Below are positions 1-64,000 of a stretch of DNA of 64,000 nt, one piece after another. Position 1 is the first letter of the stretch. Each line of letters begins with the position of its first letter. A model generated the notes under the pieces. It did not search any database. It was given only the letters and a program-made list of their open reading frames with translations, and was not told where the DNA came from. Source of the DNA: Deltaproteobacteria bacterium (GTDB lineage: Bacteria > Myxococcota_A > UBA9160 > UBA6930); assembly GCA_031401135.1 (NCBI GenBank), contig JANNRF010000345.1:729-64728 (forward strand), in the 5' to 3' direction. A program made the translations under genes and the position numbers.

Positions 1-68
1 ACGAGGTCGAGGCCTTGCGCACCAACGGCGCGACGTGAAGCTGTACCCCCAACGACATCGGGGGTGAC

Positions 69-680
69 ATGCAGAGCAACCGCATCTCTCAGGGCTTCGG
101 CATCGCGCTGCTAGCCGTCCTACTTGTTACGGCAGGCTGCGCAACGAGCGGGGGCAACAGCAGTGGCGGCCCCTCCGCGACGGAAACCGCGCCGAACTCC
201 ACCTACGAGAAGGACACCGTGCTGCGCCAAGCCGAAGGCGTCTTCGGCGAAGGCGCCGAGGGCATCGGCGACCTGATCGAGCGCTCGTTCAAGAGATTCG
301 GCCGCCCCAACGCCGTAATCCGTGGCGAAGAAGGCGGCGGCGCATTGGTCGCCGGCGTCCGTTACGGCAAAGGCCAGCTCTTCTTCGCTGGAGGAGGCGC
401 CCGCAAGATCTACTGGCAGAGCCCCTCGATCGGCTTCGACGCCGGCGGCAACGCCGCCAAGACCTTCATCATGGTCTACAACCTGAAGAGCACGCAGGAT
501 CTCTTCCAACGCTACCCAGCTGTCGACGGCAGCTTGTATTTCATCGGCGGCGCCGGCCTCAACTACAACCAGATCGACGACACCGTGCTCGCAGTCATCA
601 GGGTCGGAGTCGGCTGGAGAGCTGGTGTGAGCATCGGCTACCTGAAGTTCACGCCCGAAGCGAGCATCAACCCCTTCTGA
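69..680 (+). CDS. Lipoprotein of unknown function (resembles DUF1134 family, from memory)
   Basis: ATG ORF from the track. N-terminal signal peptide with lipobox LLVTAG|C. Gly-rich repeats (GGGALVAGVRYGKG, FIGGAGLNY). TGA stop. Confidence 0.7.
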   Translation: MQSNRISQGFGIALLAVLLVTAGCATSGGNSSGGPSATETAPNSTYEKDTVLRQAEGVFGEGAEGIGDLIERSFKRFGRPNAVIRGEEGGGALVAGVRYGKGQLFFAGGGARKIYWQSPSIGFDAGGNAAKTFIMVYNLKSTQDLFQRYPAVDGSLYFIGGAGLNYNQIDDTVLAVIRVGVGWRAGVSIGYLKFTPEASINPF

Positions 681-730
681 CGCAAAAGGCGCGCGCAGCG
701 CGTTCCCTTGCTAGCCCAAACGCGAAGCGT

Positions 731-763
731 GGAATCAGCGCGCCTCAACGGCGCGCTGATTCC
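731..763 (+). terminator. Perfect 14-bp stem hairpin downstream of the lipoprotein gene
   Basis: GGAATCAGCGCGCC (731-744), loop TCAAC, GGCGCGCTGATTCC (750-763). Lies 50 nt after the stop at 680. No U-tract follows. Confidence 0.45.
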
Positions 764-833
764 ACCCTCCCACCCCGTCCACCGCTGCGCGAATAACAAG
801 CACAACGCAAGCATGAGAGCGCACCGCCGAGGA

Positions 834-1049
834 GCGCGGGGCGAGGCGGGGGTCCCGGAGCGGAGTAGCGCGAGACCGCGCAACCAAGGCGCTCACACCG
901 CTGCGCCCCAACAGCTCGGGCAACGCCACGGGACACCTCGCTGCGTTCACCTACGCGTTCGCGCGACTGCCGCGGGACACCGGCTTTCGCACCGCATGCG
1001 CATCCCGCAAGCGTATGACGCGGAGCGGAGCCCCCGCCTCGCCCCGCGC
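834..1049. repeat. About 216-nt non-coding element bounded by a perfect 19-bp inverted repeat
   Basis: GCGCGGGGCGAGGCGGGGG (834-852) is the exact reverse complement of CCCCCGCCTCGCCCCGCGC (1031-1049). Direct repeat CGGAGCGGAG at 856-865 and 1021-1030 abuts the arms. It sits in a 443-nt gap between convergent genes. Confidence 0.5.
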
Positions 1050-1122
1050 GGCGCCACGAACGCAGGCTCTTCTCTTCTGCTCGGCGGCGAGTCCCCAATG
1101 CCGCCGATCCTCGCCCCGTCGC

Positions 1123-2571: not shown

Positions 2572-3654
2572 CTAGCGAAGCCCCGGCATCACCTCGGCCG
2601 CGAGCCGCTGCACCGCGCTGCTCGCTTCCTTCGCGTCGACGCCCGCGGTTGGGCCGATCAACACGAGCTTCGAGAGGCCGAGGCCAACGAGTTCGCGGAG
2701 GCGCGCGATGCATGCAGCGGGCGGCCCGACGACCGCGAAGCGATCGACGAAGGCGGGCGAGAGCAGGCCGGCCTGCGCGGAATCGCCGCGCGTGTGCTGG
2801 GTCATGTGGTAGCCGCGGTGCACTTCGGCGAGGACGCTGCGCTGCTCGTCGCTCGCGGGGCCGGCCACCTTGCCATGCATTACGGAGAAGCGCGCGAAAG
2901 TGGAGAGCCCGCCGCGCACGAGTGTGCGCGCGACCGCGATGTCAGCGTGCGTGGCGACGTTCACGAAAGCGCCGATGCGCAGCGCCGCCGGATCGCGGCC
3001 CGCGGCGCGCGCGGCTTCACGCGTCTGCGCGATGCCCCAAGCGATGCGCTCGGGATCCGCGCCCACCGCGAGCAGCACAGCGTCTGCGTGGCACGCCGCC
3101 GCCGTAATCACTCGTGGCCCCGTGCAGGCCACCTCCACCGCAACCTTCGCGAGATCGCCTGGGCGCGAGTGCAGCTTGCTCGCCTTCGGCGCGTCGGCGA
3201 GGCCGAGCGATGCGATCGGCGGCGCCGCGCGCTCGTCGAACGAGACTTGCTCGAACGGCAACGCGTCGCCGCGCAGGTACGCCTGAAGCTCCGCGAGATA
3301 GCGCTCGAGCACGGCGACGCGCGCAGGTGCGCGGCCGAGGTGCGCGAGCGCGGAATCGCCGCGGCCGATCCCTAACACCGCACGCCCGCCGGAGATCGCG
3401 TGCACGCTCGCGATTGCGGAAGCGGTAGCCGCGGCGTGGCGCGTGGCCGGGTTTGTTACGCCCGTCATCAGCTTCACGCGCTCCGTCTCGCGCGCCGCGA
3501 GCGCGAGCGCCACGTACGGGTCGCCGGAGAGGTTCTGCGAATCCACCACCGCGAAGCCATCAAAGCCAGCGCGCTCGGCGCGCTGCGCTTGCAGTGCGGC
3601 GCTGCGCGCGTCCGCGACGCCGAGGGTCCAGAGTTCGAGTGCCGGCGCGCTCAG
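2572..3654 (-). CDS. LLM-class (luciferase-like) flavin/F420-dependent oxidoreductase; start uncertain
   Basis: Track ORF 2572..3549 contains TGVTNPATRH and SGGRAVLGIGRGDS. LLM-like sequence (ALELWTLGVADARSAALQAQRAERAGFDGFAVVDSQNL) continues in frame upstream of the GTG at 3549. The only candidate start there is CTG at 3654, 6 nt after GGGAGG. Confidence 0.8.
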   Translation of the reverse strand: MSAPALELWTLGVADARSAALQAQRAERAGFDGFAVVDSQNLSGDPYVALALAARETERVKLMTGVTNPATRHAAATASAIASVHAISGGRAVLGIGRGDSALAHLGRAPARVAVLERYLAELQAYLRGDALPFEQVSFDERAAPPIASLGLADAPKASKLHSRPGDLAKVAVEVACTGPRVITAAACHADAVLLAVGADPERIAWGIAQTREAARAAGRDPAALRIGAFVNVATHADIAVARTLVRGGLSTFARFSVMHGKVAGPASDEQRSVLAEVHRGYHMTQHTRGDSAQAGLLSPAFVDRFAVVGPPAACIARLRELVGLGLSKLVLIGPTAGVDAKEASSAVQRLAAEVMPGLR

Positions 3655-4850
3655 GCTGCGCCTCCCAACTTCGCAATCTCGTCAGCCGTGAATCCCGCCT
3701 CCCGTAACACCTCCGCCGTGTGCTCGCCGAGTTGCGGCACGCCGTGGCGCACGTCTGTGGGGGTCTGCGAGTAGCGCGGCGGCGAGCGCAACACGTGCAG
3801 CGCGCCCGCGTGCGCGTCAGGCAGCTCGACGAGCACGCCGTTCGCGACGGCTTGCTCGTCGGCGAAGAAGCCGCGCATGTCGTTGATCGTCGCGATCGGC
3901 GCCTCGAACTCGCGCGCCCGTGTGGCGAGCTCTGCGTTCGTGAACTTGCCGATCTCGGCGGCGATCAGTTCGTAGAGCGCAGGCGCGTTCATGATTCGCG
4001 AAACGAGGCTGCCGAAGCGCGGATCGCTGATGACCGCTTCGAGCCCGAGCACGCGCATGACCGCTTCGAACTGTCGGTTCTCGATGATCACGATCGCGAC
4101 GTGGCCATCCTGCGTGGGCCACGCGCGGTAGAGCCCGTCGCCCACGCTCGGGGGCGGCGGCGGCGGTTCGCCGAACAGGCGCGGGCCTAACACGTCGGGC
4201 AACAGGAAGCTCGCGAACGCGTCGAGCATCGGCACGTCCACGCGCTGGCCCTTGCCGCTGCGCTCGCGCGCGAACAGCGCTGCGAGCGTCGACCAGGCGG
4301 CGGTCATGCCGCTGGTCTTGTCGGCCAACAAGTTCGGGATGAGCTTCGGCGGGCCCGTGCCGCCGAGCACGCGTGCGAAACCACTCCGCGCTTGGATCAC
4401 CATGTCGTAGGCGGGCTGATGCGCGTCGGGGCCGTCGGGCCCGAAGCCGCTGATGGCGGTGTAGACGAGCCGCGGGTTGTCTTGCGCGAGCCGCTCGTAG
4501 CCGAGCCCGAGGCGATCCATAACGCCCGGGCGGAAGTTCTCGAGCACGACGTCGGTCTTCGCCGCGAGGCGCAAGAAGGCGAGCTTCGCGTCGGGGTTCT
4601 TCAGGTCGAGCACTACGCTGCGCTTGTTACGGTTCAGCTGAGCGAACAGGCCGGTGACGCTGCCGCGGCGCTCGCCCATCACGCGCGTCGAATCGCCCGT
4701 GGGCGTCTCGATCTTCACGACATCGGCGCCGAGATCGCCGAGGATCTGGGCGCAGAACGGGCCCGAGACGATGGTGGAGAGATCGAGCACGCGAATGCCG
4801 CGAAGCGGCCCCGTGCTCTCGCTGCCGATCGCGACGCGCATGGAGGACAT
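3651..4850 (-). CDS. Family III CoA-transferase (CaiB/BaiF)
   Basis: 399-aa ORF. N-terminal motif [31 protein letters not shown]. Confidence 0.9.
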
Positions 4851-4967: not shown

Positions 4968-5774
4968 ATGTCCGATCCTTACGCCGAGTACACCGAGCTG
5001 AAGTTCGAGCGGCCGCGGCCGGGCGTGCTCGCGGTCGTGCTCGATGGCCCGGGCCTCAACAGCGTCAACCAACGCATGCACCGCGAACTCGCCGATGTCT
5101 GGCGCACGATCGATCGCGACCCGGAGGTGCGCATCGCGCTGATCCGCGGCGCCGGCAAGGCCTTCTCCGCGGGCGGCAGCTTCGACCTAATCGATGGCGT
5201 GATCGGCGACCACGCGACGCGCCTGCGCATCATGCGCGAAGCGCGCGATCTCGTTTACAACGTGATCGATTGCAGCAAGCCGATCGTGTCGGCGATTCAC
5301 GGGCCCGCGGTGGGCGCGGGCCTGGTCGCCGGATTGCTCGCAGACATTTCGGTAGTCGGCCGCACCGCGCGCATCATCGACGGGCATACGCGGCTCGGTG
5401 TCGCAGCGGGCGATCACGCCGCGATCTGCTGGCCGCTGCTCTGCGGCATGGCGAAGGCGAAGTATTATTTGCTGACGTGCGACACGCTGACGGGCGAAGA
5501 GGCGGAGCGCATTGGGCTCGTCTCGCTTTGCGTGGACGACGCGCAGGTGCAGGAGCGTGCGCTCGCGATCGCCGAGCAACTCGCGAACGGGGCGCAGAGC
5601 GCGCTGCGTTACACGAAGCAAACGCTGAACGCGTGGTATCGCCAGTTCGGCGCCACGTTCGACGCCTCGCTCGCGCTCGAGTTCATTGGCTTCGGCGGGC
5701 CTGATGCGCGCGAAGGCGTGGCCTCCCATCGCGAAAAGCGCGCGCCGAAGTTTGGCGGGCCAACGGGGGAGTAG
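4968..5774 (+). CDS. Enoyl-CoA hydratase/isomerase (crotonase) family
   Basis: In-frame ATG at 4968 inside track ORF 4392..5774. [28 protein letters not shown]..., [12 protein letters not shown] and [10 protein letters not shown] oxyanion-hole motifs. Confidence 0.9.
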
Positions 5775-5783: not shown

Positions 5784-6941
5784 TCACATCCACGGGTCGT
5801 CGCGGAGCCCGAGCTTCGGCCACGGGCCGTAACAGATCGGCTGGCAGTTCCCGACGCCGACGCCACCGCCGACCGGATCGATCACGCGCACCGCGGAGTC
5901 GCGGATCTGGTGGAGCCTGCGCGCAGCGCTTGGCTCACTGCAATCGAGGATGCGCTCGCCGTCGAGGTGCTGAGGCCCGCGCCACTCGCCGTGGTGATGC
6001 CCATCGAGGCCGAAGTAGAGCCCCGCTCCGAGCTGCACCCCCGTGTCGCTCAGCACTTCGAGCGTGATCGGCCGCTCGCTGCCATCGGCCATGCGCCCGA
6101 GCAGCCGGCCGCCGAGCAGGCGCCGGTTATCAGGGTGAAAGCGCAGCTCGGGTGCGAGATCGACGATCGCTTCCTCGCGCCCGTCCGGGTGCTCGATCTT
6201 CGAAGTGACGTGTTTCTGCGTGAAGCCCGGGCCTTCGGTGAGCGTGTAATGCAGGAACATCCCGTAACGCGAGCCGTCGGCGCGCGTCAGCAGCAGCGGG
6301 CACCAGATCATCTGAAAGCCGAAGCCGGGCGGGATTGCTGGGCGCGGCTTGGTGTCGGTCGGTGGCGTACCGACGTCGTAACGCACGCCCCAGGAGTGGT
6401 CGCGCGTCGAGACCCAGTTATCAGGGTCGAGGGCGATGCGCTCGCCATCGAGTTCGAGCCAGCCCGAGCAAGTTCCAATTTGGTGGTACCGCACGAGTTC
6501 CGCCGACATGCGGAAATCGTGGCGCATGAAGGTGCGCTCCTCGATCGCGGGCTGGAGGGCCGCCTCGAACAACCAGTCGAAGGCGAGCGGCTGGCAGGCG
6601 TTTCGCTCGAGCCGAAAGCGAACCCGCCGGAGCGGCTCGACGACTTCATAATGGATCGGCCCCGCGAAGACGCGCACTGGGTCTGCCGCCAGCTCGCGGC
6701 TCGCGCGCACCGTCAGCTGCTCCTTGCCGCGGGAGAGCGCCGCGTAGCCGTCCATCACGTTGCGGTTCGGATACTTCCCGAGGCCGAAGCCGAGCTGCAG
6801 CGAGCCGTCGCGCGCCATCGCCATCGCGCAAACTTTCTCGGTCCAGGCCGGGTCGCTCGTGCCGACGTGCGCAAACGTTTCCGCGACCTGATGCGTGAAG
6901 GTTTCGTCCGCCGGCAGCACGGGTCCAATCGGGTTGGTCAC
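5784..6941 (-). CDS. Conserved hypothetical protein
   Basis: Coding-like from GTG 6941 (VTNPIGPVLPADETFTHQV...), just downstream of the stop of the upstream gene at 6949. The Arg-rich N-terminal extension in the track is discarded. Confidence 0.65.
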   Translation of the reverse strand: MTNPIGPVLPADETFTHQVAETFAHVGTSDPAWTEKVCAMAMARDGSLQLGFGLGKYPNRNVMDGYAALSRGKEQLTVRASRELAADPVRVFAGPIHYEVVEPLRRVRFRLERNACQPLAFDWLFEAALQPAIEERTFMRHDFRMSAELVRYHQIGTCSGWLELDGERIALDPDNWVSTRDHSWGVRYDVGTPPTDTKPRPAIPPGFGFQMIWCPLLLTRADGSRYGMFLHYTLTEGPGFTQKHVTSKIEHPDGREEAIVDLAPELRFHPDNRRLLGGRLLGRMADGSERPITLEVLSDTGVQLGAGLYFGLDGHHHGEWRGPQHLDGERILDCSEPSAARRLHQIRDSAVRVIDPVGGGVGVGNCQPICYGPWPKLGLRDDPWM

Positions 6942-6948: not shown

Positions 6949-8049
6949 TCATTGCCAGTAACTGCCGGCGAGCATCTGCTCGAGCAGCGGGCGGTGCGGG
7001 ATCGTGGCGTCGAGGTCTGCCGGCCAGCTGGCCTCGCCGAAGTGCACCGCGCGCGCCTGGATGCGCGCCATGATGATGGCATGGCGCAGCGCGGCGTAGG
7101 CCTCGTACCAACGCAGGTCGATCCCCTGGCCTGTTAGGCGCGCGTACTCGGCGGAGACGTCCGCGGCGCGCAGGAACTCCGGCATGCCGGGCAGGCCCGC
7201 GCCGCGCGCGATCATCTGGAAGAACGCGTGCAGGAACACGAGCCAGCCGAGATCGAGCCCGCGCGGGCCCGGCGCCGCCATCTCCCAATCGAGCACCGCC
7301 GCGGGCGCGAAGCCGTCGTAGAGCACATTGCCGATCCGCGAGTCGCCCCAACTGATTACGGTCTCGCCCTCGTCCACAGGCCAGTGCGCGTCGAGCCACG
7401 CGAACGCGCTCTCGATCACCGGGTAGCGCCGGCCTTGGCGCATCCAGTCGTAGAAGCGGCGCTGGTTCTCGACGTGACGGCGCAGCGCGGTGGCGCCGGG
7501 CAGCGGAAACTCGAGGAAGCTCGCGCCGGACTTGTCGAGGTCTATCGCGTGGAGCTTCGCGATCGCGGCGATCGTCGCGTTCTGGAGCGCGCGCTGCTCG
7601 CCGGGGCTCGCTTCCGAGAGCCAGCTGCTCATCGGGTAGGGCATGATGTCCGGCGGCACGCGGCCGGCGACGCGATCCATTAGGAAGAACGGCGAGCCGA
7701 TGCGCGCGGCGTCGAGTTCGAGCCAGCGCACGTTCGGCGCCGGCACGCCGCCGCGCGCCGCGATCTGCATCACGCCGAATTGCGCGGCGAGGTCGTAGTT
7801 AGGGAAGACCGGCACGTCGCGCGGATCCGGCGCGACGCGCGCCACGAACGGCGCAGTGCGCTCCGCGCGTGCCTCGCGCCAGGTCGCCTCGAACAGCAGC
7901 GTCTCGCTCGACATGCCCGTGCCCGAGGGGCTCGCGAGGTTGCCGATGCGCGCGCCGGGCAGCTTCGCCGCGAGCCACTGCTCGAGCCGCGCGCGCGTTT
8001 GCTCGAGATCGCGCGTCGAGCGCTTAGGGTTCGCGATGGCCTCGGGCAT
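6949..8049 (-). CDS. Phosphotransferase family protein (APH-like), paralog of 1123..2130
   Basis: ATG at 8049 (MPEAIANPKRSTRDLEQTRARLEQWLAAKLPG...). Motif ISWGDSRIGNVLY, then LDWEMA. Confidence 0.85.
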   Translation of the reverse strand: MPEAIANPKRSTRDLEQTRARLEQWLAAKLPGARIGNLASPSGTGMSSETLLFEATWREARAERTAPFVARVAPDPRDVPVFPNYDLAAQFGVMQIAARGGVPAPNVRWLELDAARIGSPFFLMDRVAGRVPPDIMPYPMSSWLSEASPGEQRALQNATIAAIAKLHAIDLDKSGASFLEFPLPGATALRRHVENQRRFYDWMRQGRRYPVIESAFAWLDAHWPVDEGETVISWGDSRIGNVLYDGFAPAAVLDWEMAAPGPRGLDLGWLVFLHAFFQMIARGAGLPGMPEFLRAADVSAEYARLTGQGIDLRWYEAYAALRHAIIMARIQARAVHFGEASWPADLDATIPHRPLLEQMLAGSYWQ

Positions 8050-10390: not shown

Positions 10391-10474
10391 CGGACGACGA
10401 TGGGTCGCGGGAAAGGATGTCTGACAATTAGTCCGCCCCTTGCGTGGGAGCTGTAGCCGCGGCTCGCTTGGCGC

Positions 10475-10765: not shown

Positions 10766-10781
10766 AGCACGCGAGGTTCCA

Positions 10782-11069: not shown

Positions 11070-11073
11070 CTCG

Positions 11074-18672: not shown

Positions 18673-18676
18673 CGCC

Positions 18677-47372: not shown

Positions 47373-47441
47373 GTTTGAGTCCACAGGCCCGGCCGCTACC
47401 GTGCCGCGCCTTCGCATGAGCACCTGCAGGAGTTTCGCTCG

Positions 47442-47858: not shown

Positions 47859-47920
47859 GGCGCTGCTCGTAAAGACGGGCCCCGGCGCGAAGCCAGTGCT
47901 TTCGCACTAGCGTCGCGCGC

Positions 47921-51914: not shown

Positions 51915-51916
51915 CC

Positions 51917-52444: not shown

Positions 52445-52501
52445 GCGCGGGCTGAAGCGCTCCACAAAGGAGGCGCGATTGGACAGCCTTTGCCTCGCGC
52501 C

Positions 52502-55286: not shown

Positions 55287-55302
55287 TGACGAGCGCGGCC
55301 TA

Positions 55303-56320: not shown

Positions 56321-56445
56321 GCGGTTGCGTCCGCCTCCGCCTCCGCTTCTGTCGCGGCGTGCGCGAGAGGCGCAGGAAGAGGTCTGCGCGGGCCTGCGCC
56401 GTTACTTGCACTCTTCGGGCGCGCTCTCGCGATAGATTGCGCGGC

Positions 56446-57291
56446 ATGTCGCAACCGCGTCCGCTCGTGAGCGGAATTGTCACTTGCTTCAACGAGGAGC
56501 GGCACCTGCACGCCTGCCTCGAGAGCCTCGCTTGGTGCGACGAGATCGTGGTGCTCGATTCGTTCTCGACCGACCACTCGGCCGAGATCGCGAAGAGCTT
56601 CCCGAACGTGCGCTTCTTCGAGCGCACCTATTACGGCGCCGCCGCCGCCAAGAACTTCGCGCTCGACCAGGCGCGCCACGCCTGGCGCTTCATCCTCGAT
56701 TCCGATGAGCGCTGCACCCCCGAGTTGCAGCGCGAGATCGAGGCACTGCTGGGCAGGGGGCCGGCGCACGGGGCCTACACCGTGAAGCGCCGCTGCTTCT
56801 TCCTCGGCCGCGAGATTCGCTTCTCAGGTTGGCAGCGCGACCGCGTGGTACGCCTCATCCAAGCCGGCGCCGCCCGCCACGCGAACGCACGCGTGCACCC
56901 CAAAGTGCTCGTGCAAGGCGCAGCGCCGCTGCTCGCGAGCCCGATCCTCCACTACATGATCGAGGACTTTCACGAGTACTCGCAGCGCATGCTCAAGTAC
57001 GGTTATTGGGGCGCAGCGCAGGCGTGGCGCGACGGCACGCGCGCGCACTCCTTCGCCGATGTCTGGTTCCGCCCCGTCTGGCGCTTCTTCCGCAGCTACG
57101 TGCTCCAGCTCGGCTTCCTCGACGGTGGCGTCGGCATCACGTTCTGCATGTGTCAGGCATTCGCGACGTACACGAAGTGGTCGCTGCTGTGGAGCTGGCA
57201 GCTCGACGCCGCGCGCGGCCGCGAACCGCAGCTGCCCGCGTTCGACGAGCGCGAGGAGACCTGGCGGGGAGCGGAAGCCGCGCGCGAGTAG
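56446..57291 (+). CDS. Family 2 glycosyltransferase (LPS-core type)
   Basis: ATG 56446. VSGIVTCFNEERHL, VVLDSFSTD, LDSDE (DxD) motifs. Confidence 0.85.
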   Translation: MSQPRPLVSGIVTCFNEERHLHACLESLAWCDEIVVLDSFSTDHSAEIAKSFPNVRFFERTYYGAAAAKNFALDQARHAWRFILDSDERCTPELQREIEALLGRGPAHGAYTVKRRCFFLGREIRFSGWQRDRVVRLIQAGAARHANARVHPKVLVQGAAPLLASPILHYMIEDFHEYSQRMLKYGYWGAAQAWRDGTRAHSFADVWFRPVWRFFRSYVLQLGFLDGGVGITFCMCQAFATYTKWSLLWSWQLDAARGREPQLPAFDEREETWRGAEAARE

Positions 57292-57313
57292 CGGCTCGAC
57301 GGATCGCGGAACT

Positions 57314-57529
57314 TCACGCCTCTTCGACGATCTTCAGCGCCCGATTCGGGCAGTAGCGCACCGCCGCTTCCACCTGCGCGCGCGTCGCTTCGGGGAACGG
57401 ATCGAGCAACAGCTGCGCCTGCCCATAATCACCCGCGCGTTCGACTACGAGAAACACGTCTGGCGCCTCGCCCATGCACACGCCGTGACCCTGGCAGAGA
57501 TCGCGGTCGATCAGCACGCGCAGCTTCAT
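57314..57529 (-). CDS. Ferredoxin (single-cluster, P450 partner type)
   Basis: ATG 57529 in an ATGA overlap with the P450 stop. IDRDLCQGHGVCMGEAPDVF...YCP. 71 aa. Confidence 0.85.
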   Translation of the reverse strand: MKLRVLIDRDLCQGHGVCMGEAPDVFLVVERAGDYGQAQLLLDPFPEATRAQVEAAVRYCPNRALKIVEEA

Positions 57530-58854
57530 CGCACGCGTCTCCTGTAGCTGAGCCGGCACGGCTCGCTGGTACGCAGAATCAACGACGGCATCTCGTCGCG
57601 GTAACTCTCGGGCGCGTCCACCAATGCGAACTCGTAGCGCGCGAGCAGCGCCGTGAAGATCGCCTTCACTTGTAGCAGCGCGAACGCGTTGCCCACGCAC
57701 TTGCGCCTGCCAGCGCCGAACGGGATGTACGCGAAGACGTTCTCAGGGAACGCGCGCTCGGGGTCGAAGCGCTCAGGGTCGGGGTAGTGCTCGGGAATGC
57801 GGTGTGCGACGTAGGGCGAGACCACGATCGTCGCGCCACTCGGGATTACGGCGCCCTTGAACGTGAAATCGCGCTTCACGAGCCGCATCAGCGTGACGAG
57901 CGGCGGGTGGATGCGCAGCACCTCGAACACGAAGCGCTCGAGCGCGGGCAACTCGCGCAGCGCTGCGTGCCCGAGCTCGCCGCCCGGCGCGTAGACGGAA
58001 TCCACTTCGCGGACGAGGCGCGCGGCGTGCTGCGGGTGACGCGCGAGCTCGACGATCGTCCAGGTCGCGGTGTTCGAGCTGGTGTGAAAGCCCGCGAACA
58101 TGATCCAGATGACCATGCCCACGATCTCGTCGTCTCTGAGCCGCCGCCCGTCGAGATAGGCCGCTTCCATGAACGACTGCAACATGTCGGGCGACTGCGC
58201 GCCGGTGCGGCGCCGCTCCTCGATCACGGCCGTAATCAGTTCGACGAGCCGCGCTCGCGAGCGGTCGCGACGCGCAAACGCTTCCTGCTGGCCGTACGGA
58301 TCGAGGATCGACTCTGCCGAGACTGCGTGTTCGAGATCCTGATAAAGCGCGCCGAACTCGTCCGTCAGCTTCGCGCGGAACTCGCTGCCCATTAGGCAGT
58401 GCGTCGAGGTGCGCAGCACGAGCTCCTTCAGCTCGTCGTAGAAGTCCTTCTCGCCGGCATCGTCCCAACGCGCGACCCACTCCTCGACTTCGCGCGCGAT
58501 CACGCTCGCGTAGGCCTTCATGCGATCGAGGCGCAGCGCGTTCGCCTGCATCTTCACTTGCTGGCGCTCGAGTTCGAGCGGCGCGCCGAACTGAATGCCC
58601 TCGCCGAACACGGGCACCATGAACCGGTACGGCTCGGACGCCGAGAGCTGATCGTCCGGGGCGCGGAAGACGGCCTCCGATGCCTCGGGGCTGCTCAATA
58701 ACACGTGGCACGCCCCGCCCAGCTCGAACTCGGCGAACTCGCCGCACTCGCGGTAGGCGCGCAGCATGAAGTGCGCGGGGTGCGCGACGAACTCTTCGTA
58801 ATGCCCGCTGCCGGGCTTTGCGCCGGAGACGACCGGCCAGCCCGCGCCGCTCAC
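57526..58854 (-). CDS. cyp51: CYP51-like cytochrome P450 (sterol 14-alpha-demethylase family)
   Basis: GTG 58854 in a GTGA overlap with the upstream stop. Collinear with M. tuberculosis CYP51 as I recall it (VSG..GH.EEF..P, YPFM.P.FGEG, FAG.HTSS, IPFGAGR..CVG, YR......C...YRRR). Confidence 0.8.
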   Translation of the reverse strand: MSGAGWPVVSGAKPGSGHYEEFVAHPAHFMLRAYRECGEFAEFELGGACHVLLSSPEASEAVFRAPDDQLSASEPYRFMVPVFGEGIQFGAPLELERQQVKMQANALRLDRMKAYASVIAREVEEWVARWDDAGEKDFYDELKELVLRTSTHCLMGSEFRAKLTDEFGALYQDLEHAVSAESILDPYGQQEAFARRDRSRARLVELITAVIEERRRTGAQSPDMLQSFMEAAYLDGRRLRDDEIVGMVIWIMFAGFHTSSNTATWTIVELARHPQHAARLVREVDSVYAPGGELGHAALRELPALERFVFEVLRIHPPLVTLMRLVKRDFTFKGAVIPSGATIVVSPYVAHRIPEHYPDPERFDPERAFPENVFAYIPFGAGRRKCVGNAFALLQVKAIFTALLARYEFALVDAPESYRDEMPSLILRTSEPCRLSYRRRVR

Positions 58855-59724
58855 GCCACCGGCCTCGGCCGCACTCTCGGAAACTCGGGGTGCCGGAATG
58901 CGTCGCCTGGCTTCAGGCGGCCGGAGAGCAGCTGGAACACGCTCGTGGCCTTGGATTCGGGAATCGTCTTGTCGGTCAGGAACGGGCGCTGCGCGTAGCG
59001 CGCATCGGCCCCGAAGAACCGTAGTGACAACGTGCGCCGCCGCGCGCCCGCATGGGTGGCAGCGCCGCCGTGCAGGAGCCCGGGATGAAACACGACCGCG
59101 TCGCCCGGCTCGACGCCGAACGCCACGACGTCCCAACTTGTTGGGTCTCGCTGGCGCTCGGCCTCGATGTTCGGGAGCCGCGGCAGCGAGCCATCGCCGT
59201 AGATCGGCGTCGTGTCGTCAGCCGGATCGAACGCCGAGCCGTCGTACATCGGGCCGTTGTGCGAGCCGCGCACGAACTCGAGCGAGTGCTCGCGCGCCAC
59301 GGCGTCGAACGAGATCCACACCACCGCGATCTGCTCGCCGTCCACGGGCAGGTACGACGAATCCTGGTGCCATGGCGTGCGGCGCGTATCGCCGCCTTCT
59401 TTCAGGAATACCTGCTCGTACATGAACCACACGTCGGGCGCGTTCCAGAGCGCGGCGACGGCGTTCGGCGGCTGGCGTCGCGTGCACGAGATCGCGGTAG
59501 ACGGGCTGTGCGCTGCGGTTCGCGAGATCCTGATAGAAGCGGCCATCGCCGCCCGCATAGGTGTTCGCGCTCGGGCTCGGGTTCGCGAGGCTCCACTCGT
59601 AGGCGACGCGCGCGTCGGCGAGCTCGCGCTCGCCTAGCAGCCCACGCAGGCACACCACCCCATCACGCCGGAAGGTGGCGCGCATTGCGTCGTCGATGCG
59701 CGTTCCCGCGCTGCTCGCCGTCAC
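58851..59724 (-). pseudogene. Phytanoyl-CoA dioxygenase (PhyH) family gene split by a +1 frameshift near 59465-59480
   Basis: The N-terminal part is in track ORF 59218..59724 (...FYQDLANRSAQPVYRDLVHAT). The C-terminal part is in track ORF 58851..59558 (QPPNAVAALWNAPDVWFMYEQVFLKEGG..TPWHQDSSY...). Removing one C from ACGCCAG restores a single frame. Confidence 0.7.
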
Positions 59725-61658
59725 GAGAGCACGTAGTCCGCAGCGTCAACGCTGCGGGTTTCTTGCCAGTACTCGAGCAGCGTGAAGGGCCAGTTCTGCG
59801 CGACGCGCCCGCTCGCGCTCTTGTACCAGCTGCTCACTTTCGAGACTCCCCACACCATATTCCGGTTGCCCTCGTCGATGCGTTCGTTGTAGGCGTCGTG
59901 CACGTCCTGCTTGCACTCGAGCGAGCGCTTGCCGCTTTCGAGGAGCAGACGGATCGCGTTGACGATGTAGCGCGTCTCGCACTCCGAGAAGTAGATGATG
60001 CTGCCGTTCACCACGATGTTGGTGTTCGGGCCGTACATGAAGAAGAAGTTCGGGAAGTTCGGCGCGGTGAGGCCCAGGTAAGCCCGCGCGTTTCCGTCCC
60101 ACTGCTTGTGCAAATCCGCGCCGCCGCGGCCGAGCACCTGCATCGGCGTCAAGAACTTCGAGGCTTGGAAGCCGGTGGCGAAGACGATCACGTCCGCGGG
60201 GCGCTCGACGCAGTCCTGGCTGACGACCCCGTTCGCGGTGATCTCGCGAATGCCTTCGGTTATCAGGTTCACGTTGGGTCGCTTCAACGCCGCACACCAG
60301 ACGCCGTTGTCGACCAGGATGCGCTTGCTCGCGGGCGGATAGTTCGGCACGACCTTCGGGATTAGGTCGGGGCGGTCGGCGAGCTGCGCGCGCAGCGCCT
60401 CGGCGAGCAGCGCGCGCAACTCCTCGTTGCCCGCGCTCACGCTGTCCTCGTGCCCGGTCCAGGCGCGGTCGACGCGCACGCGCGGCAGAAACATGCCGTC
60501 GCCGGTGCGCCAGAACAGCCAGAAACGGTGCCAGTGCCCCGCGTGCGGCACGTGCGCGAACAGCCAGCGCTGGCCCGCTGGAATCTCGGCGTGGTAATCG
60601 GGCGCGGGCAACAGCCAGTTCGGCGTGCGCTGGTAGATGTCGAGCTGCGCCACCTGCTCGGCAATTACAGGCACGAACTGCGCAGCGGTCGCGCCAGTCC
60701 CAATCACTGCGACGCGCTTGCCCTTGAGGTCGACGCTGTGGTCCCAGCGCGCCGAATGAAACGACGGCCCACGGAAGCGATCTCGCCCCGCGATCTCGGG
60801 CAGCTTCGGCTGATTGAGCTGGCCGACAGCGCTGATCAGCGCGCTCGCTTCGATGAACTCCTCCGCGCCATCGGGCTTGCGCACACGAATGCGCCAAAGC
60901 GAGCGGTCCTCTTGCCACGCGGCCGAGAGCACCTCCGTCTTGAAACGGATCAGCTTGCGCAACTCGAAGCGCTCGGCGCACTCGCGGAAGTAGGCGAGCA
61001 GCGCGGGCTGGGTGGAATAATGATTCGGCCAGTCGGACTTTTGCGCGAACGAATACGAGAAGAACGAGTTCGCGACGTCGACGCGGCAGCCGGGGTAGGT
61101 GTTCTCGTACCAAGTTCCGCCCACTTCGTCGTTCTTCTCGAGCATCACGCAGGGCACGCCGGCTTGCGTGAGACGATGCGCCGCGAGCAGCCCCGACATG
61201 CCGGCGCCAATAATCACCACGCGGAAATCGCGGCCCGGCGCGAGCGCCTGCGCGTTCCAGTTCGGCGCGCGCAAATCGTTGTCGCCGACTGAGAGCTCCT
61301 CCTTCACGAGCGGCAGATACGGCTCGATCTCCGCCTCGGGCGAAATCCAGCGCAGGATGCCGCGCAGGAAATCGTCGCTCGGCATCGGCGGCGCGGGGCA
61401 GCCGGCGTCGCGGTACTTCGCGAGCACCGCGAGAGCGTGCGCGCGCGCTGCTTGCGCCGCCGCTTCGCCGCCCTCGAAGCCGCTCGGATCGCCGACCATC
61501 GACGAAGTATCAGGGCGCAAGTCGGCGCGCAGCACGCCGAGATCGCCCGTGATGTGCGCGAGCGCGGGCAACAGCGAGGGCAGGTGCGCCTCCGCCAGCG
61601 CGCGCGCGATCTCGTCGTTCGTTTCCGTAATGCGCTGCGCCGGGCGCGAGAGATCCAT
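59721..61658 (-). CDS. Flavin-dependent (Baeyer-Villiger/FMO-type) monooxygenase with an N-terminal extension of about 150 aa
   Basis: ATG 61658. VVIIGAGMSGLLAA FAD motif, GGTWYENTYPGCRVD, VAVIGTGATAAQ NADP motif. Confidence 0.88.
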   Translation of the reverse strand: MDLSRPAQRITETNDEIARALAEAHLPSLLPALAHITGDLGVLRADLRPDTSSMVGDPSGFEGGEAAAQAARAHALAVLAKYRDAGCPAPPMPSDDFLRGILRWISPEAEIEPYLPLVKEELSVGDNDLRAPNWNAQALAPGRDFRVVIIGAGMSGLLAAHRLTQAGVPCVMLEKNDEVGGTWYENTYPGCRVDVANSFFSYSFAQKSDWPNHYSTQPALLAYFRECAERFELRKLIRFKTEVLSAAWQEDRSLWRIRVRKPDGAEEFIEASALISAVGQLNQPKLPEIAGRDRFRGPSFHSARWDHSVDLKGKRVAVIGTGATAAQFVPVIAEQVAQLDIYQRTPNWLLPAPDYHAEIPAGQRWLFAHVPHAGHWHRFWLFWRTGDGMFLPRVRVDRAWTGHEDSVSAGNEELRALLAEALRAQLADRPDLIPKVVPNYPPASKRILVDNGVWCAALKRPNVNLITEGIREITANGVVSQDCVERPADVIVFATGFQASKFLTPMQVLGRGGADLHKQWDGNARAYLGLTAPNFPNFFFMYGPNTNIVVNGSIIYFSECETRYIVNAIRLLLESGKRSLECKQDVHDAYNERIDEGNRNMVWGVSKVSSWYKSASGRVAQNWPFTLLEYWQETRSVDAADYVLS

Positions 61659-61698
61659 CGTGTGCTCCGAGTGCGAAGGGAGGGTGATCGTCGCAGCT

Positions 61699-62661
61699 CT
61701 ACGCGCCCAGCTTCCAGTTCGCCTCCGCCACGAGCTTCTGCATGAACGCTTCGCCGTAGGCGTCCTCGGGCGCGGCGCGCACGAGGCGGTCGAGCACCTG
61801 CGCGTCGTTGCCAACGAGGATCCGCCAGCGTTCCTGGCGCACGCCGTCGAGGATCACGCTCGCGGCTTCAGCGGCGGTCATGGGCGCGTCGTCGCGGAAG
61901 CTGTCGCCGCCAGCGATTAGGGCGAGGCGGATCTGTTCGGGTGAGAGCCCCGCCACCGGCAGCCCCATGCGCGTCATGCGGTCGCGCGCCTCCGCGAGCT
62001 TCTCCTCGGGCAACTCCTTCGGATCGCGCCCGAGCACTTTGGCCGAGTTGATCACGATCGATGTCCCGATGTGCCCCGGCATCACCACCGACACTTTTAC
62101 GTGTGGCGCGTTGACGCGGAAATCATTGATCAGCGCTTCGCTGAAACCCTTCACCGCGAACTTCGCCGCGCTGTAGGCGCTGTGCGCGCTGCGCGGCCCG
62201 AGCGAGGCCCAGAAGCCGTTCACGCTGCTGGTGTTGATTAGGTGGCCTTCGGGCGCGGCGACGAGCATCGGCACGAACGCGCGCGCGACGAAGTACACGC
62301 CGTTCCAGCACACCGCGAAGGTCTTGTCCCACTCGTCGCGCGCGTCGCAGACGAAGCTGCCGCCGCCGCCGATGCCGGCGTTGTTGAAGACGAGGTGCAC
62401 GCACTCGGTGGCGTGCTCCTTCGCGACGGCATCGCGAAACGCGAGCACGCGCGCCTCGTCCGAGACATCCGCGACGAACGTCGTCACGCGCACGCCGCGG
62501 TTCTCGCGTGCGCACAGCGCCTTCGTCTGCTCCATGTTCTCGGCGCTCACGTCGCAGATCGCGATGTGGCAACCCTCCGCAGCCAGCTGACGCGCGAGCT
62601 CGCGCCCCATGCCCGTGCCGCCGCCCGTGATCACCGCGATTTTTCCGTCGAAGCGTTCCAT
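61699..62661 (-). CDS. SDR-family oxidoreductase
   Basis: 320 aa. AVITGGGTGMGRE, NNAG, YSAAK. Confidence 0.9.
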   Translation of the reverse strand: MERFDGKIAVITGGGTGMGRELARQLAAEGCHIAICDVSAENMEQTKALCARENRGVRVTTFVADVSDEARVLAFRDAVAKEHATECVHLVFNNAGIGGGGSFVCDARDEWDKTFAVCWNGVYFVARAFVPMLVAAPEGHLINTSSVNGFWASLGPRSAHSAYSAAKFAVKGFSEALINDFRVNAPHVKVSVVMPGHIGTSIVINSAKVLGRDPKELPEEKLAEARDRMTRMGLPVAGLSPEQIRLALIAGGDSFRDDAPMTAAEAASVILDGVRQERWRILVGNDAQVLDRLVRAAPEDAYGEAFMQKLVAEANWKLGA

Positions 62662-62727
62662 TTCTTTGTCCTCCAGAGCGTCGAAGCTTGCCTCGGCGCC
62701 GTGCTGTTAGCGAGACTCGCCCCCTTT

Positions 62728-62758
62728 CTCGCTGCGCGCGGCGAAGCCGCCGCTTGCG
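62728..62758 (+). repeat. REP-like repeat, copy 3 (variant)
   Basis: CTCGCTGCGCGCGGCGAAGC (62728-62747) is identical to the first 20 nt of the copies at 16631 and 40421, then continues CGCCGCTTGCG. It lies in a divergent intergenic region. Confidence 0.6.
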
Positions 62759-62780
62759 TTCGCCCCAGGAGAACTGCCAA

Positions 62781-64000
62781 ATGCCCGACCCGCGCCCACT
62801 TCGTTTCGCAATCATCGGCGCCGGCATGGCTGGCGTGCTCGCGGCCATCAAGCTGCGCGAGGCCGGCTACGACGATTTCGCGGTCTACGAGAAGGGCGCT
62901 TCGGTCGGCGGCACCTGGCGCGAGAACACCTATCCGGGGCTCTCCTGCGACGTGCCCTCGCACATCTACAGCTACGCGTTCGAGCCGAACCCCGAATGGA
63001 GCCACCGCTTCTCGCCCGGCGCCGAGATCCGCGAATACTTCGAGGGCGTCGCGCGCAAGTATGAAGTGCTGCCGCGCATCCGCTTCAACACCGAGATTGC
63101 GCGGCTCGAGTTCTCGGGCGGCCGCTGGCGCATCGAAACGAAGACGGGCGAGCGCGACGAAGCGGACGTCGTGATCGCCGCGACCGGCGTGCTGCATCAC
63201 CCGAACCTCCCGAAGATCGCGGGCGTCGATTCCTTCGCGGGCGCGTGCTTCCACAGCGCGCGTTGGGACCACTCGGTCCCGCTCGATGGCAAGCGCATCG
63301 GCGTGATTGGCACCGGCTCAACCGCGATCCAGATGACCGGCGCGCTCGTGCCGCGCGCAGCGAAGTACTCCTTGTTTCAGCGCACCGCGCAGTGGGTCGC
63401 GCCGCAAGAGAACCCCGCATACAGCGAGGACGAGAAGGCGACGCTGCGCGGGGATCGCAGTGCGCTGCAAACCCTCCACGTCGAGATGACGAAGACCTTC
63501 CACGAGACGTTCTCGAACGGCGTGGTCGACGCGAACTCCGAGCAGATGAAGGGGCTCGAGGCGGTCTGCCGCGCGCATCTCGAGGGAGCTGTCGCGGATC
63601 CGGCGCTGCGCGAGAAGCTGCGACCTAATTACAGAGCCGCGTGCAAGCGGTTGGTGATCTCGGGCGATTTCTATCCGGCGATCCAGAAGCCGAACGCCGA
63701 GCTCGTGACCGAAGCGATCGAGCGCATAGAGCCCGGCGGCGTGCGAACGCAAGACGGACGCCTCCACCAGCTCGACGTGCTCGTGCTCGCGACGGGCTTT
63801 CGCGTGGACCGCTTCATCCGCCCGATCGCGGTGACCGGGCGCGACGGCGTGAAGCTCAACGAGGTCTGGGCCGAGCGGCCGAACGCGTACCTCTCGGTCT
63901 CGATTCCGCGCTTCCCGAATTTGTTCATGCTGAACGGCCCGAACGGCCCGGTCGGAAACTTCTCCCTAATCACCATCGCCGACATGCAGCTCCACTACAT
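62781..64000 (+). CDS. Flavin-containing (BVMO/FMO-type) monooxygenase, 3'-partial at the window edge
   Basis: Not in the track because it has no stop within the window. ATG 62781. FAIIGAGMAGVLAA, GGTWRENTYPGLSCD, IGVIGTGSTAIQ. The frame is open to base 64000. Confidence 0.88.
   Translation, partial: MPDPRPLRFAIIGAGMAGVLAAIKLREAGYDDFAVYEKGASVGGTWRENTYPGLSCDVPSHIYSYAFEPNPEWSHRFSPGAEIREYFEGVARKYEVLPRIRFNTEIARLEFSGGRWRIETKTGERDEADVVIAATGVLHHPNLPKIAGVDSFAGACFHSARWDHSVPLDGKRIGVIGTGSTAIQMTGALVPRAAKYSLFQRTAQWVAPQENPAYSEDEKATLRGDRSALQTLHVEMTKTFHETFSNGVVDANSEQMKGLEAVCRAHLEGAVADPALREKLRPNYRAACKRLVISGDFYPAIQKPNAELVTEAIERIEPGGVRTQDGRLHQLDVLVLATGFRVDRFIRPIAVTGRDGVKLNEVWAERPNAYLSVSIPRFPNLFMLNGPNGPVGNFSLITIADMQLHY

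Follow-up and report, generated by a model that had tools for sequence, protein, structure and literature searches.

Over-represented short words have each opened a field of DNA biology: uptake for the uptake signal sequence (USS) and the DNA uptake sequence (DUS), recombination for Chi, segregation for the FtsK-orienting polar sequences (KOPS), and methylation-linked repair or transformation for the highly iterated palindrome 1 (HIP1). The USS of Pasteurellaceae is AAGTGCGGT or ACAAGCGGT, and the DUS dialects of Neisseriaceae form the GCCGTCTGAA family; the minor pilin ComP is an example of an uptake receptor in systems of this type. HIP1 of cyanobacteria, GCGATCGC, is a GC-rich palindrome with methyltransferase sites (GATC, CGATCG). 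The very short patch (VSP) repair of Escherichia coli acts on CCWGG, correcting T:G to C:G in the C5-methylation site with linked Vsr and methyltransferase. Biases linked to this repair, CCWGG and its relatives being increased and CTAG decreased, were reportedly described in 1992 by Bhagwat and McClelland and by Merkl et al. To our knowledge no uptake sequence has been reported for Myxococcota, and a search of the literature on word over-representation and uptake sequences found nothing similar for this phylum; the words described below turn up there only as parts of primers. The shares of USS/DUS located in open reading frames (ORFs) were given as 65%, 49% and 34.5% (PMC2817400). For HIP1, both a repair-linked drive through methylation-dependent mismatch repair (PMC4390886) and a role in transformation (bioRxiv 10.64898/2026.06.24.733823) are debated. 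Here, a stretch of 64,000 nucleotides (the window; contig JANNRF010000345.1, positions 729 to 64,728), nearly the entire 64.7-kb contig from an uncultured soil lineage of Myxococcota, was analysed. Its genes carry a family of short AT-rich words centred on TTA, and it is likely that this family is a real DNA-level word system read by a protein.

The window has a GC content of 68.5% (A 15.9%, T 15.6%). An earlier inspection of the letters, called here the sequence-only reading, had claimed that four AT-rich words recur far above expectation in genes, independent of frame and strand. Exact counting on both strands gave 11 copies of TGATTACGG, 9 of TTGTTACGG, 13 of TTATCAGG and 6 of TTGTTGGGG. 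All coordinates listed in that reading are exact matches and its counts stand for the last three words; for TGATTACGG it had given 10, and the copy on the minus strand at 12170-12178 had been missed. Its estimates under a model of independent bases were close to the computed 0.17, 0.17, 0.50 and 0.37 (values are given in the order TGATTACGG, TTGTTACGG, TTATCAGG, TTGTTGGGG). The reading frames it quoted were also correct (L/V-I-T, D-Y-G, R-N-Q and V-I-S/T for one word; G-Y-Q, P-D-N, L-I-T and L-S-G for another).

Several null models were applied. Shuffling the dinucleotides of the whole window gave 0.07 exact copies of TGATTACGG, 0.20 of TTATCAGG and 0.10 of TTGTTGGGG, and for TTGTTACGG with at most one mismatch 3.27 copies were expected and 24 observed. 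Gene calling based on codon usage yielded 59 genes covering about 91% of the window, and the strand of most of them was confirmed through Pfam matches. Synonymous-codon shuffles within these genes (n=1000) gave 1.02, 0.20, 0.39 and 0.48 copies with maxima of 6, 3, 3 and 3, and the observed counts were never reached. The expectation was 0.75, 0.10, 0.26 and 0.10 when the junction dinucleotides were kept, and 2.6, 0.67, 2.3 and 0.16 (maxima 5, 3, 5 and 2) when two flanking bases per side were kept. Homogeneous Markov models up to order 4 predicted less than one copy of each word, and 3-periodic models predicted at most 0.5 per word at orders 1-3 and 1.9, 2.3, 1.6 and 0.13 at order 4. Only order-5 models came near the counts of the three TTA words (5.5, 3.7 and 5.2 homogeneous; 7.2, 7.3 and 8.4 3-periodic), because training on 58 kb lets them memorise the words' own rare 6-mers; TTGTTGGGG remained below one even there (0.89 and 0.80). 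Compositionally matched words are not enriched in the window. The three TTA words rank as the top three among all 9-mers with at least five A/T (class mean 0.16 per word), and the top count of 11 exceeds 9, the most copies that an AT-rich 9-mer reached in 300 shuffles. Tested against the shuffle null, the Poisson P values were 7e-13 for TTGTTACGG, 2e-9 for GTTATCAGG, 8e-9 for TGATTACGG and about 1e-15 for the 8-mer cores, and those of the TTA words stay significant under a Bonferroni correction for all words. On its own, TTGTTGGGG does not pass this correction in the window. It replicates in the relatives described below (4 against 0.03 expected), as does TTGTTGGG (10 against 0.40).

Two trivial sources were rejected. 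The words do not stem from a longer repeat or mobile element, such as a repetitive extragenic palindrome or a miniature inverted-repeat transposable element, because the flanks of all copies are unrelated; they share at most a weak excess of A two bases upstream of the core. An assembly or sequencing artefact was dismissed, as the same words occur in independent metagenome-assembled genomes (MAGs) and in raw contigs from different projects. The Logan contig L001 is 99.94% identical to the window over 8.4 kb, and none of the five recent single-nucleotide differences between them falls inside any word.

When all 5-9-mers were compared with the shuffle null, every strongly enriched AT-rich word was found to contain TTA or TAA. 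The wider family consists of TGATTA[CG]GG, [TGC]TGTTACGG, TGTTAGG, ATTAGG and (G)TTATCAGG, which is CTGATAAC, with TTGTTGGGG as a weaker relative. With TTGTTGGGG included there are about 86 sites, or one per 751 bp. The observed and expected counts were 25 and 3.1 for ATTAGG, 24 and 3.2 for TTGTTA, 41 and 11.6 for TTACGG, 14 and 0.8 for TGTTAGG, 14 and 1.1 for TTATCAG, 10 and 0.5 for ATTAGGG, 21 and 5.3 for TGATTA, and 4 and 0.05 for both TAATGATTC and GAATCATTA; TGTTACGG has 14 sites. The longest recurring member is the 11-mer GAATCATTAGG, found three times (14902-14912, 16110-16120 and once more); its likeness to part of a Fur-box-like AT-rich consensus is merely superficial. In coding DNA the words are spelled with rare synonymous codons at 15-20 times the synonymous-shuffle expectation. 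None of them equals its own reverse complement.

The words are sharply bounded. In single-base scans the interior one-mismatch neighbours were absent, and a change was tolerated only at the first base, at the C/G before GG and at the last base (tolerated variants: TGATTAGGG, 3 against 0.03; [GC]TGTTACGG, 5 against 0.2). Neighbours that are richer in GC by one mismatch are depleted, such as TGATCACGG with 1 copy against 3.5. The core CTGATWAC is common to TGATTAC and to the reverse complement of TTATCAG; in it, A was found 8 times against 0.63 expected, T 7 times against 0.58 and C once against 3.35. The total of TTA in the window is as expected (226 against 225), and its context is restricted, with a purine before it in 183 of the 226 cases and CG or GG after it. 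The general clustering of codons ending in A/T is slight (369 lag-1 pairs against 342); therefore, the signal is word-specific. TTAA is absent from the window, where 31 (31-35) are expected. As it is rare in all other high-GC loci that were fetched (0-2 per 10-20 kb), this absence looks like a general feature of high-GC DNA and not like a signal of the lineage. CTAG stands at a quarter of the expectation (28 against 109).

Other biases were seen beside the words. CC/GG-containing words are depleted relative to synonymous shuffles (CCC/GGG 0.69, GGAGG 0.36, CCCCC 0.29, CCWGG 0.44, GAGCTCC 0.16), and CGAGC, GCAGC and GCGCG are enriched. TAT takes the place of TAC mainly before codons starting with C. 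The CC/GG depletion and the TAT preference are a second, more ordinary layer of context bias.

The family was found 43 times in sense against 2.2 expected and 41 times in antisense against 2.8. For every word the enrichment extends over several codon phases and over both orientations to the gene, and ATTAGG reads C CTA AT on the coding strand in 18 of 25 cases. Antisense sites lie in genes whose strand was confirmed by Pfam (43566-46778, 59721-61658, 34036-35481, 26420-27421 and 6949-8049). The equal enrichment places the signal in the duplex DNA and not in translation. The claimed independence of frame and strand therefore stands for the family; for TTGTTGGGG alone it is not shown in the window, because five of its six sites are in one phase (TTG TTG GGG). 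Selection for off-frame stop codons ('ambush') was rejected, since the total of TTA/TAA is not raised and CTA/TAG and TCA/TGA are not enriched. A translational preference for codon pairs or codon contexts, or chance after post hoc picking of words, was also considered. The preference for TAT over TAC before C-starting codons is general, and AT-rich 9-mers made of common codons reach 5-9 copies in shuffles. Against this, the antisense excess matches that in sense, the shuffles that preserve junctions and the periodic Markov models fail, and the P values are Bonferroni-safe; the words also replicate out of sample, as shown below. This explanation is extremely improbable and effectively refuted.

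The plus and minus strands of the window carry 41 and 45 family sites (TGATTA[CG]GG 5:9, TGTTACGG 7:7, TTATCAGG 7:6, TGTTAGG 6:8, ATTAGG 11:14), with no strong orientation skew. The ratio of 5:1 for TTGTTGGGG results from where Leu-Leu-Gly occurs. A replication-type strand skew, as for a function like that of Chi or KOPS, was thus rejected in the window. The spacing is random-like, with a coefficient of variation (CV) of 0.86 (random 5-95% range 0.83-1.15). Neither regular spacing nor a preferred position in the gene was found in the window; the sites are spread evenly over genes and uniformly within them. Close neighbours are both filled, as at 58230, 58338 and 58391 within 170 bp and at 6127 and 6418 within 300 bp.

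In order to place the words in their lineage, about 220 kb of related MAG loci, orthologous or neighbouring, was used beside the 64-kb window. The nearest public relatives are soil and sediment MAGs labelled Myxococcota or 'Deltaproteobacteria', and protein identity to the closest of them is 76-87% for the 812-aa CoA-transferase, about 82% for the 1070-aa amidohydrolase and 83-98% for the short-chain dehydrogenase/reductase (SDR). The close relatives, 'clade A', comprise 148 kb (L002, L004, L008, L032, L058, L102, L104, L105, L107 and fragments), and a sister group (L003, L005-L007) has a higher GC content of 71-73%; 'clade A' and 'clade B' are operational groups and not a phylogeny. Counts pooled over relatives are not fully independent because many of the loci are orthologous to one another. 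The comparison set holds 658 kb from 70 other loci of at least 66% GC, including other Myxococcota-like contigs, Dehalococcoidia and Streptomyces. Counted together, the five main words occur at 0.91/kb within the window, at 0.49/kb in the close relatives, at 0.15/kb in the sister group, where only TTATCAGG/CTGATAAC is present, and at 0.011/kb in the comparison set. Shuffle tests within the relatives returned the same words as the top AT-rich 8-mers, and unrelated loci of 69-70% GC gave nothing comparable. The out-of-sample test used 46 kb of clade A DNA without a BLAST match to the window, mostly beyond its right edge in L104, L105 and L107, and found 23 matches (P = 2e-30 at the background rate). 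The words are thus common to the relatives. Shuffles, Markov nulls, strand symmetry and relatives all agree with the sequence-only reading that the signal is at the DNA level and is not a preference for amino acids or simple codons. Apart from this, two copies of TGTTACGG lie 11 bp apart on the same strand at 768-786 of L017, an unrelated deltaproteobacterial MAG locus of 69.7% GC; they are probably a local tandem feature and not a word system.

The words replace GC-rich spellings that are usual elsewhere. Other high-GC loci, 394 kb in all, contain [CG]TACCAGG 42 times and TTATCAGG not once; the window contains TTATCAGG 13 times and lacks [CG]TACCAGG, as it lacks TACCAGG altogether. The ratio of GATCACGG to GATTACGG (GAT[C/T]ACGG) is 3:14 in the window and 81:7 in other high-GC loci, and the ratio TG-CTG-GG : TG-TTG-GG : TG-TTA-GG is 8:13:14 against 70:9:1 elsewhere. 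Orthologous positions that lack the word carry ordinary GC-rich codons, often with three to five of nine bases different (for example, TCGTCACCG for TTGTTACGG and TGCTCGG for TGTTAGG). The absence of TACCAGG, the rarity of GATCACGG and the CCWGG depletion noted above would fit an avoidance of GC-rich counterparts, for instance restriction sites that overlap TACCAGG or GATCACGG, by which codons are pushed to the AT-rich alternative. However, one change would then suffice, and the word takes two or three; the Tyr-Gln sites described below even add a rare T-ending codon upstream. The Pro-Asp-[Asn/Lys] sites (CCS GAC AAS) share no GC-rich word with TACCAGG and yet arrive at the same product, and CCWGG is still present 103 times. 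The sum of word and counterparts rises instead of being redistributed (CTGATNAC, 21 against 7.2), and it is the word itself that is used at these sites and not all alternative synonymous spellings. Therefore, avoidance is a very improbable explanation.

The strength of the signal was measured at permissible sites, that is, positions where the protein sequence allows a synonymous spelling of the word. Filled sites numbered 10 of 22 for TGATTACGG, 9 of 36 for TTGTTACGG and 13 of 42 for TTATCAGG, and twelve random permutations of TGATTACGG filled 0-3 of 5-35. All seven X-Tyr-Gln-[GAVDE] sites read NNT TAT CAG G, with a rare T-ending codon upstream each time. All four Pro-Asp-[Asn/Lys] sites read CCT GAT AAx, and CCT GAT is used in only 5 of 59 other Pro-Asp pairs. 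Where costly codons are needed, TTATCAGG is mostly missing (0/11 with AGG for Arg, 1/15 with ATA for Ile, 1/5 with TTA TCA). In sum, it is written at 11 of 11 sites where T-ending codons suffice against 1 of 26 where AGG or ATA is required. This word is thus written where the cost is a C-to-T change at the wobble position, read by the same tRNA, and mostly not where a rare tRNA is needed. A frame usage set by codon cost is the same kind of rule as that found for uptake sequences (PMC2817400). Nearly half of the TTA codons (15 of 31) and just over half of the CTA codons (22 of 42) of the window lie inside family words.

A further explanation is a context-dependent spectrum of mutation or repair, in which no finished word is recognised: certain contexts of this lineage would mutate to A/T or be protected as such, and the words would be by-products of an equilibrium. 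Most of the steps are transitions (GATC to GATT, GTC to GTT, TAC to TAT, CTG to TTG to TTA). The sister group holds intermediates (CTACCAGG 3, CTATCAGG 4, TTATCAGG 9), and other strong oligonucleotide biases exist, among them the GG/CC depletion and the lack of TTAA. However, the dependence extends over 8-9 bases: the C:T ratio in GATyA is 3:14 before CGG, 17:1 before CGC and 14:3 before CGA, so that the choice between ATT and ATC is set by a GG four bases downstream. Unrelated precursors converge, including by transversions (CCG/CCC GAC AAC to CCT GAT AAC), and the Markov and context-preserving nulls fail. The words are also retained about five times better than other 8-mers rich in A/T at third positions. 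A single local context shared by the C-to-T steps, such as one methylation-deamination motif, was sought by reasoning from the spellings and none was found. A plain mutation spectrum is quite unlikely.

The retention was determined at orthologous sites in 13 relatives. Of 233 aligned word sites 47 were identical, whereas among the other 8-mers of the window that have A/T at two or more third positions 198 of 4624 were (odds ratio 5.6, P = 2e-17). It follows that the words are not short-lived clusters of rare codons. Between the window and L102, which are 94% identical, eight sites differ in word status, and polarisation by L104, L105 and L107 indicates about five gains and three losses. Change from CTATCAGG to TTATCAGG was gained independently at two different sites, one in the lineage of the window and one in that of L102.

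Each site could instead be selected individually to bind an abundant chromosomal protein, one that depends on AT-rich landing sites in the GC-rich genome and is excluded from promoters. This would explain why the words are sharp, resemble protein sites of 8-9 bp and outlast the rare-codon-rich controls. Nucleoid-associated, segregation or replication-linked proteins would be candidates, and the scarcity in non-coding DNA would follow if binding in regulatory regions were harmful. However, every cheap permissible site is filled even at distances of 100-300 bp, which is not expected from selection for coverage. Orientation and spacing show no pattern, gain and loss are fast between genomes of 94% identity, and we know of no unskewed chromosomal site of such density inside genes. 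This explanation is unlikely.

We regard, with moderate confidence, a lineage-specific vocabulary of words under site-autonomous molecular drive, opposed by codon cost, as the best explanation overall. The force would act on the finished word, since its precursors are unrelated from one frame to another ([CG]TACCAGG and GTTGTCSGG both lead to (G)TTATCAGG). Convergence is sometimes reached by transversions, and other spellings that are equally AT-rich or avoid the GC-rich form are not used. A force on the finished word would point to a sequence-specific protein that reads duplex DNA. A site-autonomous drive is favoured over selection for site density because cheap sites are filled despite close neighbours and the spacing is random. 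Whether the force is drive and not selection on each site is a finely balanced judgement, which we make in favour of drive.

As a tentative model, the words may be a multi-word 'self-tag' system of an uncultured soil clade of Myxococcota, in which a machinery reading duplex DNA rewrote coding DNA towards a few TTA-centred words at roughly one site in every 750 bp. The machinery could be an uptake receptor or a repair activity linked to a nuclease or methylase, and alleles with the word would be favoured at each event of DNA exchange or repair. By one route, word-bearing DNA would be preferentially taken up and recombined, as for USS, DUS and HIP1; by the other, mismatches would be corrected towards the word, as in the repair model of HIP1 and in VSP repair. 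The translational cost of rare codons would oppose the drive. A link of the drive specifically to uptake or transformation is possible but doubtful. Among the mechanisms offered by the sequence-only reading, codon context is strongly argued against and a plain mutation spectrum is unlikely; uptake, repair and protein binding are not separated from one another.

The repair route is a sub-variant of this drive. A pair of methyltransferase and nicking endonuclease would recognise the words, and mismatches in near-cognates would be corrected to the word. The related words share cores (RTTA(C)GG; CTGATWAC), their GC-rich neighbours at one transition are depleted, and short-patch repair yields such a pattern. 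The sites are site-autonomous and strand-symmetric, and one per 750 bp or so is close to the one per 1000 nt or so of Elhai's repair model for HIP1 (PMC4390886). However, the direction is towards A/T, opposite to the known T:G to C:G repair of VSP. Since the words are non-palindromic, the methyl mark would lie on one strand only. Regular spacing is not significant by the CV given above, and neither a methyltransferase nor a Vsr gene lies within the window. The repair-linked variant is therefore rather unlikely.

Four observations weigh against the drive reading as a whole. First, no DNA methyltransferase, Vsr-like nuclease or competence gene was found among the Pfam-annotated genes of the window. 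Second, USS/DUS genomes have a single dominant word, whereas several of about equal frequency are present here. Third, the words are conserved to the same degree as average 8-mers (in relatives of about 80% identity, 0.20 for the words and 0.21-0.28 for the average), and purifying maintenance is thus shown only relative to the rare-codon-rich controls. Fourth, the density of words is 3.7 times lower in non-coding than in coding DNA (4 of 138, P = 0.002), the opposite of USS/DUS. In the window and both groups of relatives pooled, 134 matches are coding and 4 non-coding (97% coding). The non-coding DNA of the window contains almost no words, although its GC content is the same (68.5%) and TTA is about as dense there (18 in 5.7 kb). 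Under a drive, this scarcity could be understood as follows. Protein constraint would hold five or six of the 8-9 bases (the first and second positions of Tyr, Asp, Asn, Ile and Leu codons), and therefore a weak drive would need to fix only two or three synonymous positions; in freely drifting DNA under GC pressure, near-cognates would be rare and would decay at all positions. Alternatively, protein binding in regulatory DNA may be selected against.

The individual sites of the window are as follows. On the plus strand, TGATTACGG lies at 9153-9161 and 39778-39786 (sense, CTG ATT ACG G), at 49678-49686 (sense, GAT GAT TAC GGC) and at 7353-7361, where it is antisense (ACC GTA ATC AGT) in the minus-strand gene 6949-8049, whose strand is given by the Pfam APH match. 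On the minus strand it is read in sense as GTG ATT ACG G at 3102-3110 (gene 2572-3549, minus), 11964-11972 and 40895-40903, as GCT GAT TAC GGC at 12170-12178 and as CTG ATT ACG G at 58230-58238. Two further minus-strand copies are antisense, at 27051-27059 (GCC GTA ATC ACT) in the gpsA-like plus-strand gene 26420-27421 and at 46076-46084 (GGC CGT AAT CAG) in the plus-strand gene 43566-46778. The copy at 11964 is also present in L002, and higher-GC relatives carry TCGTCACCT there. The copy at 58230 is missing from L102, L104, L105 and L107 and is a gain of the window lineage.

TTGTTACGG is read in sense on the plus strand at 124-132 (CTT GTT ACG G), at 15752-15760, 16532-16540 and 38437-38445 (GTT GTT ACG G), and at 25969-25977 and 46467-46475 (TTG TTA CGG). 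Its antisense copies are at 4624-4632 on the plus strand (AAC CGT AAC AAG) and at 27385-27393 (GTC CGT AAC AAG) and 34400-34408 (ACC GTA ACA ATC) on the minus strand. GTGTTACGG, a member of the TGTTACGG family, was found at 1774-1782, 3702-3710 and 30146-30154, and CTGTTACGG at 5827-5835 and 11805-11813, all on the minus strand.

TTATCAGG is in sense on the plus strand at 13741-13748 (CGT TAT CAG G; the same at the orthologous site in L003, L005, L007 and L008), 22336-22343 (ATT TAT CAG G), and 25389-25396 and 31948-31955 (both ACT TAT CAG G). In sense on the minus strand it lies at 1323-1330 (GGT TAT CAG G), 13055-13062 (TTA TCA GGC), 19714-19721 (AGT TAT CAG G) and 58338-58345 (CTT TAT CAG G); the last is a recent gain, as L102, L104 and L107 have CTATCAGG. 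The antisense copies are at 6127-6134 and 6418-6425 (CCT GAT AAC) and 60260-60267 (CTG ATA ACC) on the plus strand, and at 45468-45475 (CCT GAT AAG) and 54798-54805 (CCT GAT AAC) on the minus strand. TTGTTGGGG reads TTG TTG GGG in sense on the plus strand at 8705-8713, 9944-9952 (also in L002, L003 and L004), 35059-35067, 35110-35118 and 49754-49762, and is antisense on the minus strand at 32676-32684 (GAC CCC AAC AAC).

TGTTAGG occupies 7132-7138, 43729-43735, 49088-49094, 52808-52814, 52985-52991 and 55511-55517 on the plus strand, and 2314-2320, 3371-3377, 4186-4192, 11702-11708, 18676-18682, 30543-30549, 38864-38870 and 45728-45734 on the minus strand. The copies at 30543 and 43729 are inside TTGTTAGGG, and the TAG of that at 18676 is the stop codon of the minus-strand gene 18677-19843. 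ATTAGG is on the plus strand at 7679-7684, 11438-11443, 13091-13096, 14907-14912, 21021-21026, 26403-26408, 28908-28913, 58391-58396, 60361-60366, 61916-61921 and 62237-62242. Its minus-strand positions are 5186-5191, 10297-10302, 15357-15362, 16110-16115, 21880-21885, 23313-23318, 26638-26643, 36054-36059, 37028-37033, 51516-51521, 51792-51797, 55299-55304, 63624-63629 and 63965-63970. Those at 14907 and 16110 are inside the two copies of GAATCATTAGG located above. At 21880 the plus strand reads CCTAAT, where TAA ends gene 20628-21884 as its stop codon and shares bases with the start that follows (TAATG), and the match at 55299 is among the few non-coding ones, between called genes. The copy at 58391 is a recent gain (ATCAGG in L102, L104, L105 and L107), that at 62237 is a gain of the window lineage, and that at 63624 is shared with L104 and L107 and lost in L102.

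The genes around the words have ordinary metabolic and envelope functions. They include CoA-transferases, a molybdopterin oxidoreductase, P450s, monooxygenases resembling flavin-containing monooxygenases (FMO-like), SDRs, beta-lactamase-fold proteins, a porin, an ABC exporter and GpsA. Scans of the window for tRNAs, Rfam families and tandem repeats gave nothing relevant to the words. The longest stretches without a called gene are 10391-11073 and 51915-52501 (683 and 587 bp; 63-65% GC). In the first of them, the public gene call on the near-identical L001 places a 95-aa HTH_3 protein that was missed by our caller. No family word lies in 46805-49015, nor in the 2.5-kb stretch 40928-43472. At 46805-47014 there is a 69-aa ORF that aligns only with the first 40 positions of the AhpC/TSA profile and may be a truncated gene remnant. 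Two genes at 42383-43472 immediately precede the 1070-aa PD40/amidohydrolase gene. The first encodes a 171-aa protein without a Pfam match; the second, at 42903-43472, encodes a 189-aa protein whose N-terminus bears a prepilin-type methylation motif (PF07963). The latter may be a pseudopilin or a minor pilin and is by itself no evidence for uptake.

The right end of the window, 56437-64000, is a cluster syntenic in all clade members that were fetched (L102-L107). It encodes a glycosyltransferase, a ferredoxin, a P450, a PhyH-like dioxygenase, an FMO-like monooxygenase, a 241-aa protein of unknown function, an SDR and a second FMO-like protein, and looks like a small oxidative tailoring or catabolic cluster. 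In the gap between ferredoxin and glycosyltransferase (about 57291-57314 of the window), a two-gene insertion is present in L102 (7574-8331), L103 (6699-7456) and L107 (15747-16504), encoding a 74-aa protein and a 178-aa protein with an AbiEii-like toxin domain. It has no counterpart in the window, L104 and L105, and is therefore a variable toxin-antitoxin-like cassette.

If the proposed reading is true, no such system would have been known before except in Pasteurellaceae, Neisseriaceae and cyanobacteria, and none in which a GC-rich genome carries several AT-rich words. The system would be strong enough to fix rare codons at essentially every cheap permissible site and would explain half of the TTA and CTA codons. 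The Tyr-Gln (7/7) and Pro-Asp (4/4) sites show that a DNA-level force can override codon usage almost deterministically, and the words account for much of the use of the rarest codons in this GC-rich DNA. The words can also serve as a sharp and cheap marker for DNA of the lineage in metagenomes and for recently acquired genes, given the densities of 0.9/kb and 0.011/kb. The gradient, which starts with a single word in the sister group of higher GC, ends with the full family in the window and has intermediates such as CTATCAGG, is a natural series that can be used to date the origin of the force and to find the responsible gene by phylogenetic profiling. The question of whether such words originate by drive or by selection would become testable in a new phylum.

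The words can finally be compared with the known systems. Like USS and DUS, they are short, non-palindromic, far over-represented and about equally frequent in both orientations, at about one per kb. They also form lineage-specific 'dialects' shared among close relatives, have a composition atypical for the host genome, and are continually gained and lost. In genes, the frames of least codon cost are used in both cases (PMC2817400). In contrast to USS and DUS, at least five comparable words are present instead of one (TGATTACGG 11, TGTTACGG 14, TTATCAGG 13, TGTTAGG 14, ATTAGG 25). The words of the window lineage are 97% coding and depleted in non-coding DNA, where USS and DUS are enriched, and they form no terminator-like inverted pairs; the likeness is one of sequence features. 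With HIP1 they share the octamer scale, the abundance in genes in all frames, the density of about one per kb and the evolutionary maintenance. They differ from it in being AT-rich, non-palindromic and several, with no cognate methyltransferase known. The bias linked to VSP repair is a precedent for a sequence-specific repair that shifts a family of related 4-5-mers in a strand-symmetric and frame-independent manner, with depletion of one-transition neighbours as seen here for GATCACGG relative to GATTACGG (3:14) and for TACCAGG (0). However, VSP repair works towards GC with an effect below 2-fold on 4-5-mers, whereas the bias here is towards AT (C to T), 10-40-fold and 8-9 bases long. Chi and KOPS or the architecture imparting sequences (AIMS) are likewise over-represented 8-mers in genes; they occur once every few kb and are recognised by a protein that translocates along DNA. 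They are strongly skewed with the direction of replication, whereas here the strands stand at 41:45 and each word occurs on both. The class of phenomenon is already known, and the instance differs in the number of words, in AT-rich words within a GC-rich genome, in their non-palindromy, in their nearly exclusive coding location and in the phylum, for which the literature search gave nothing similar.

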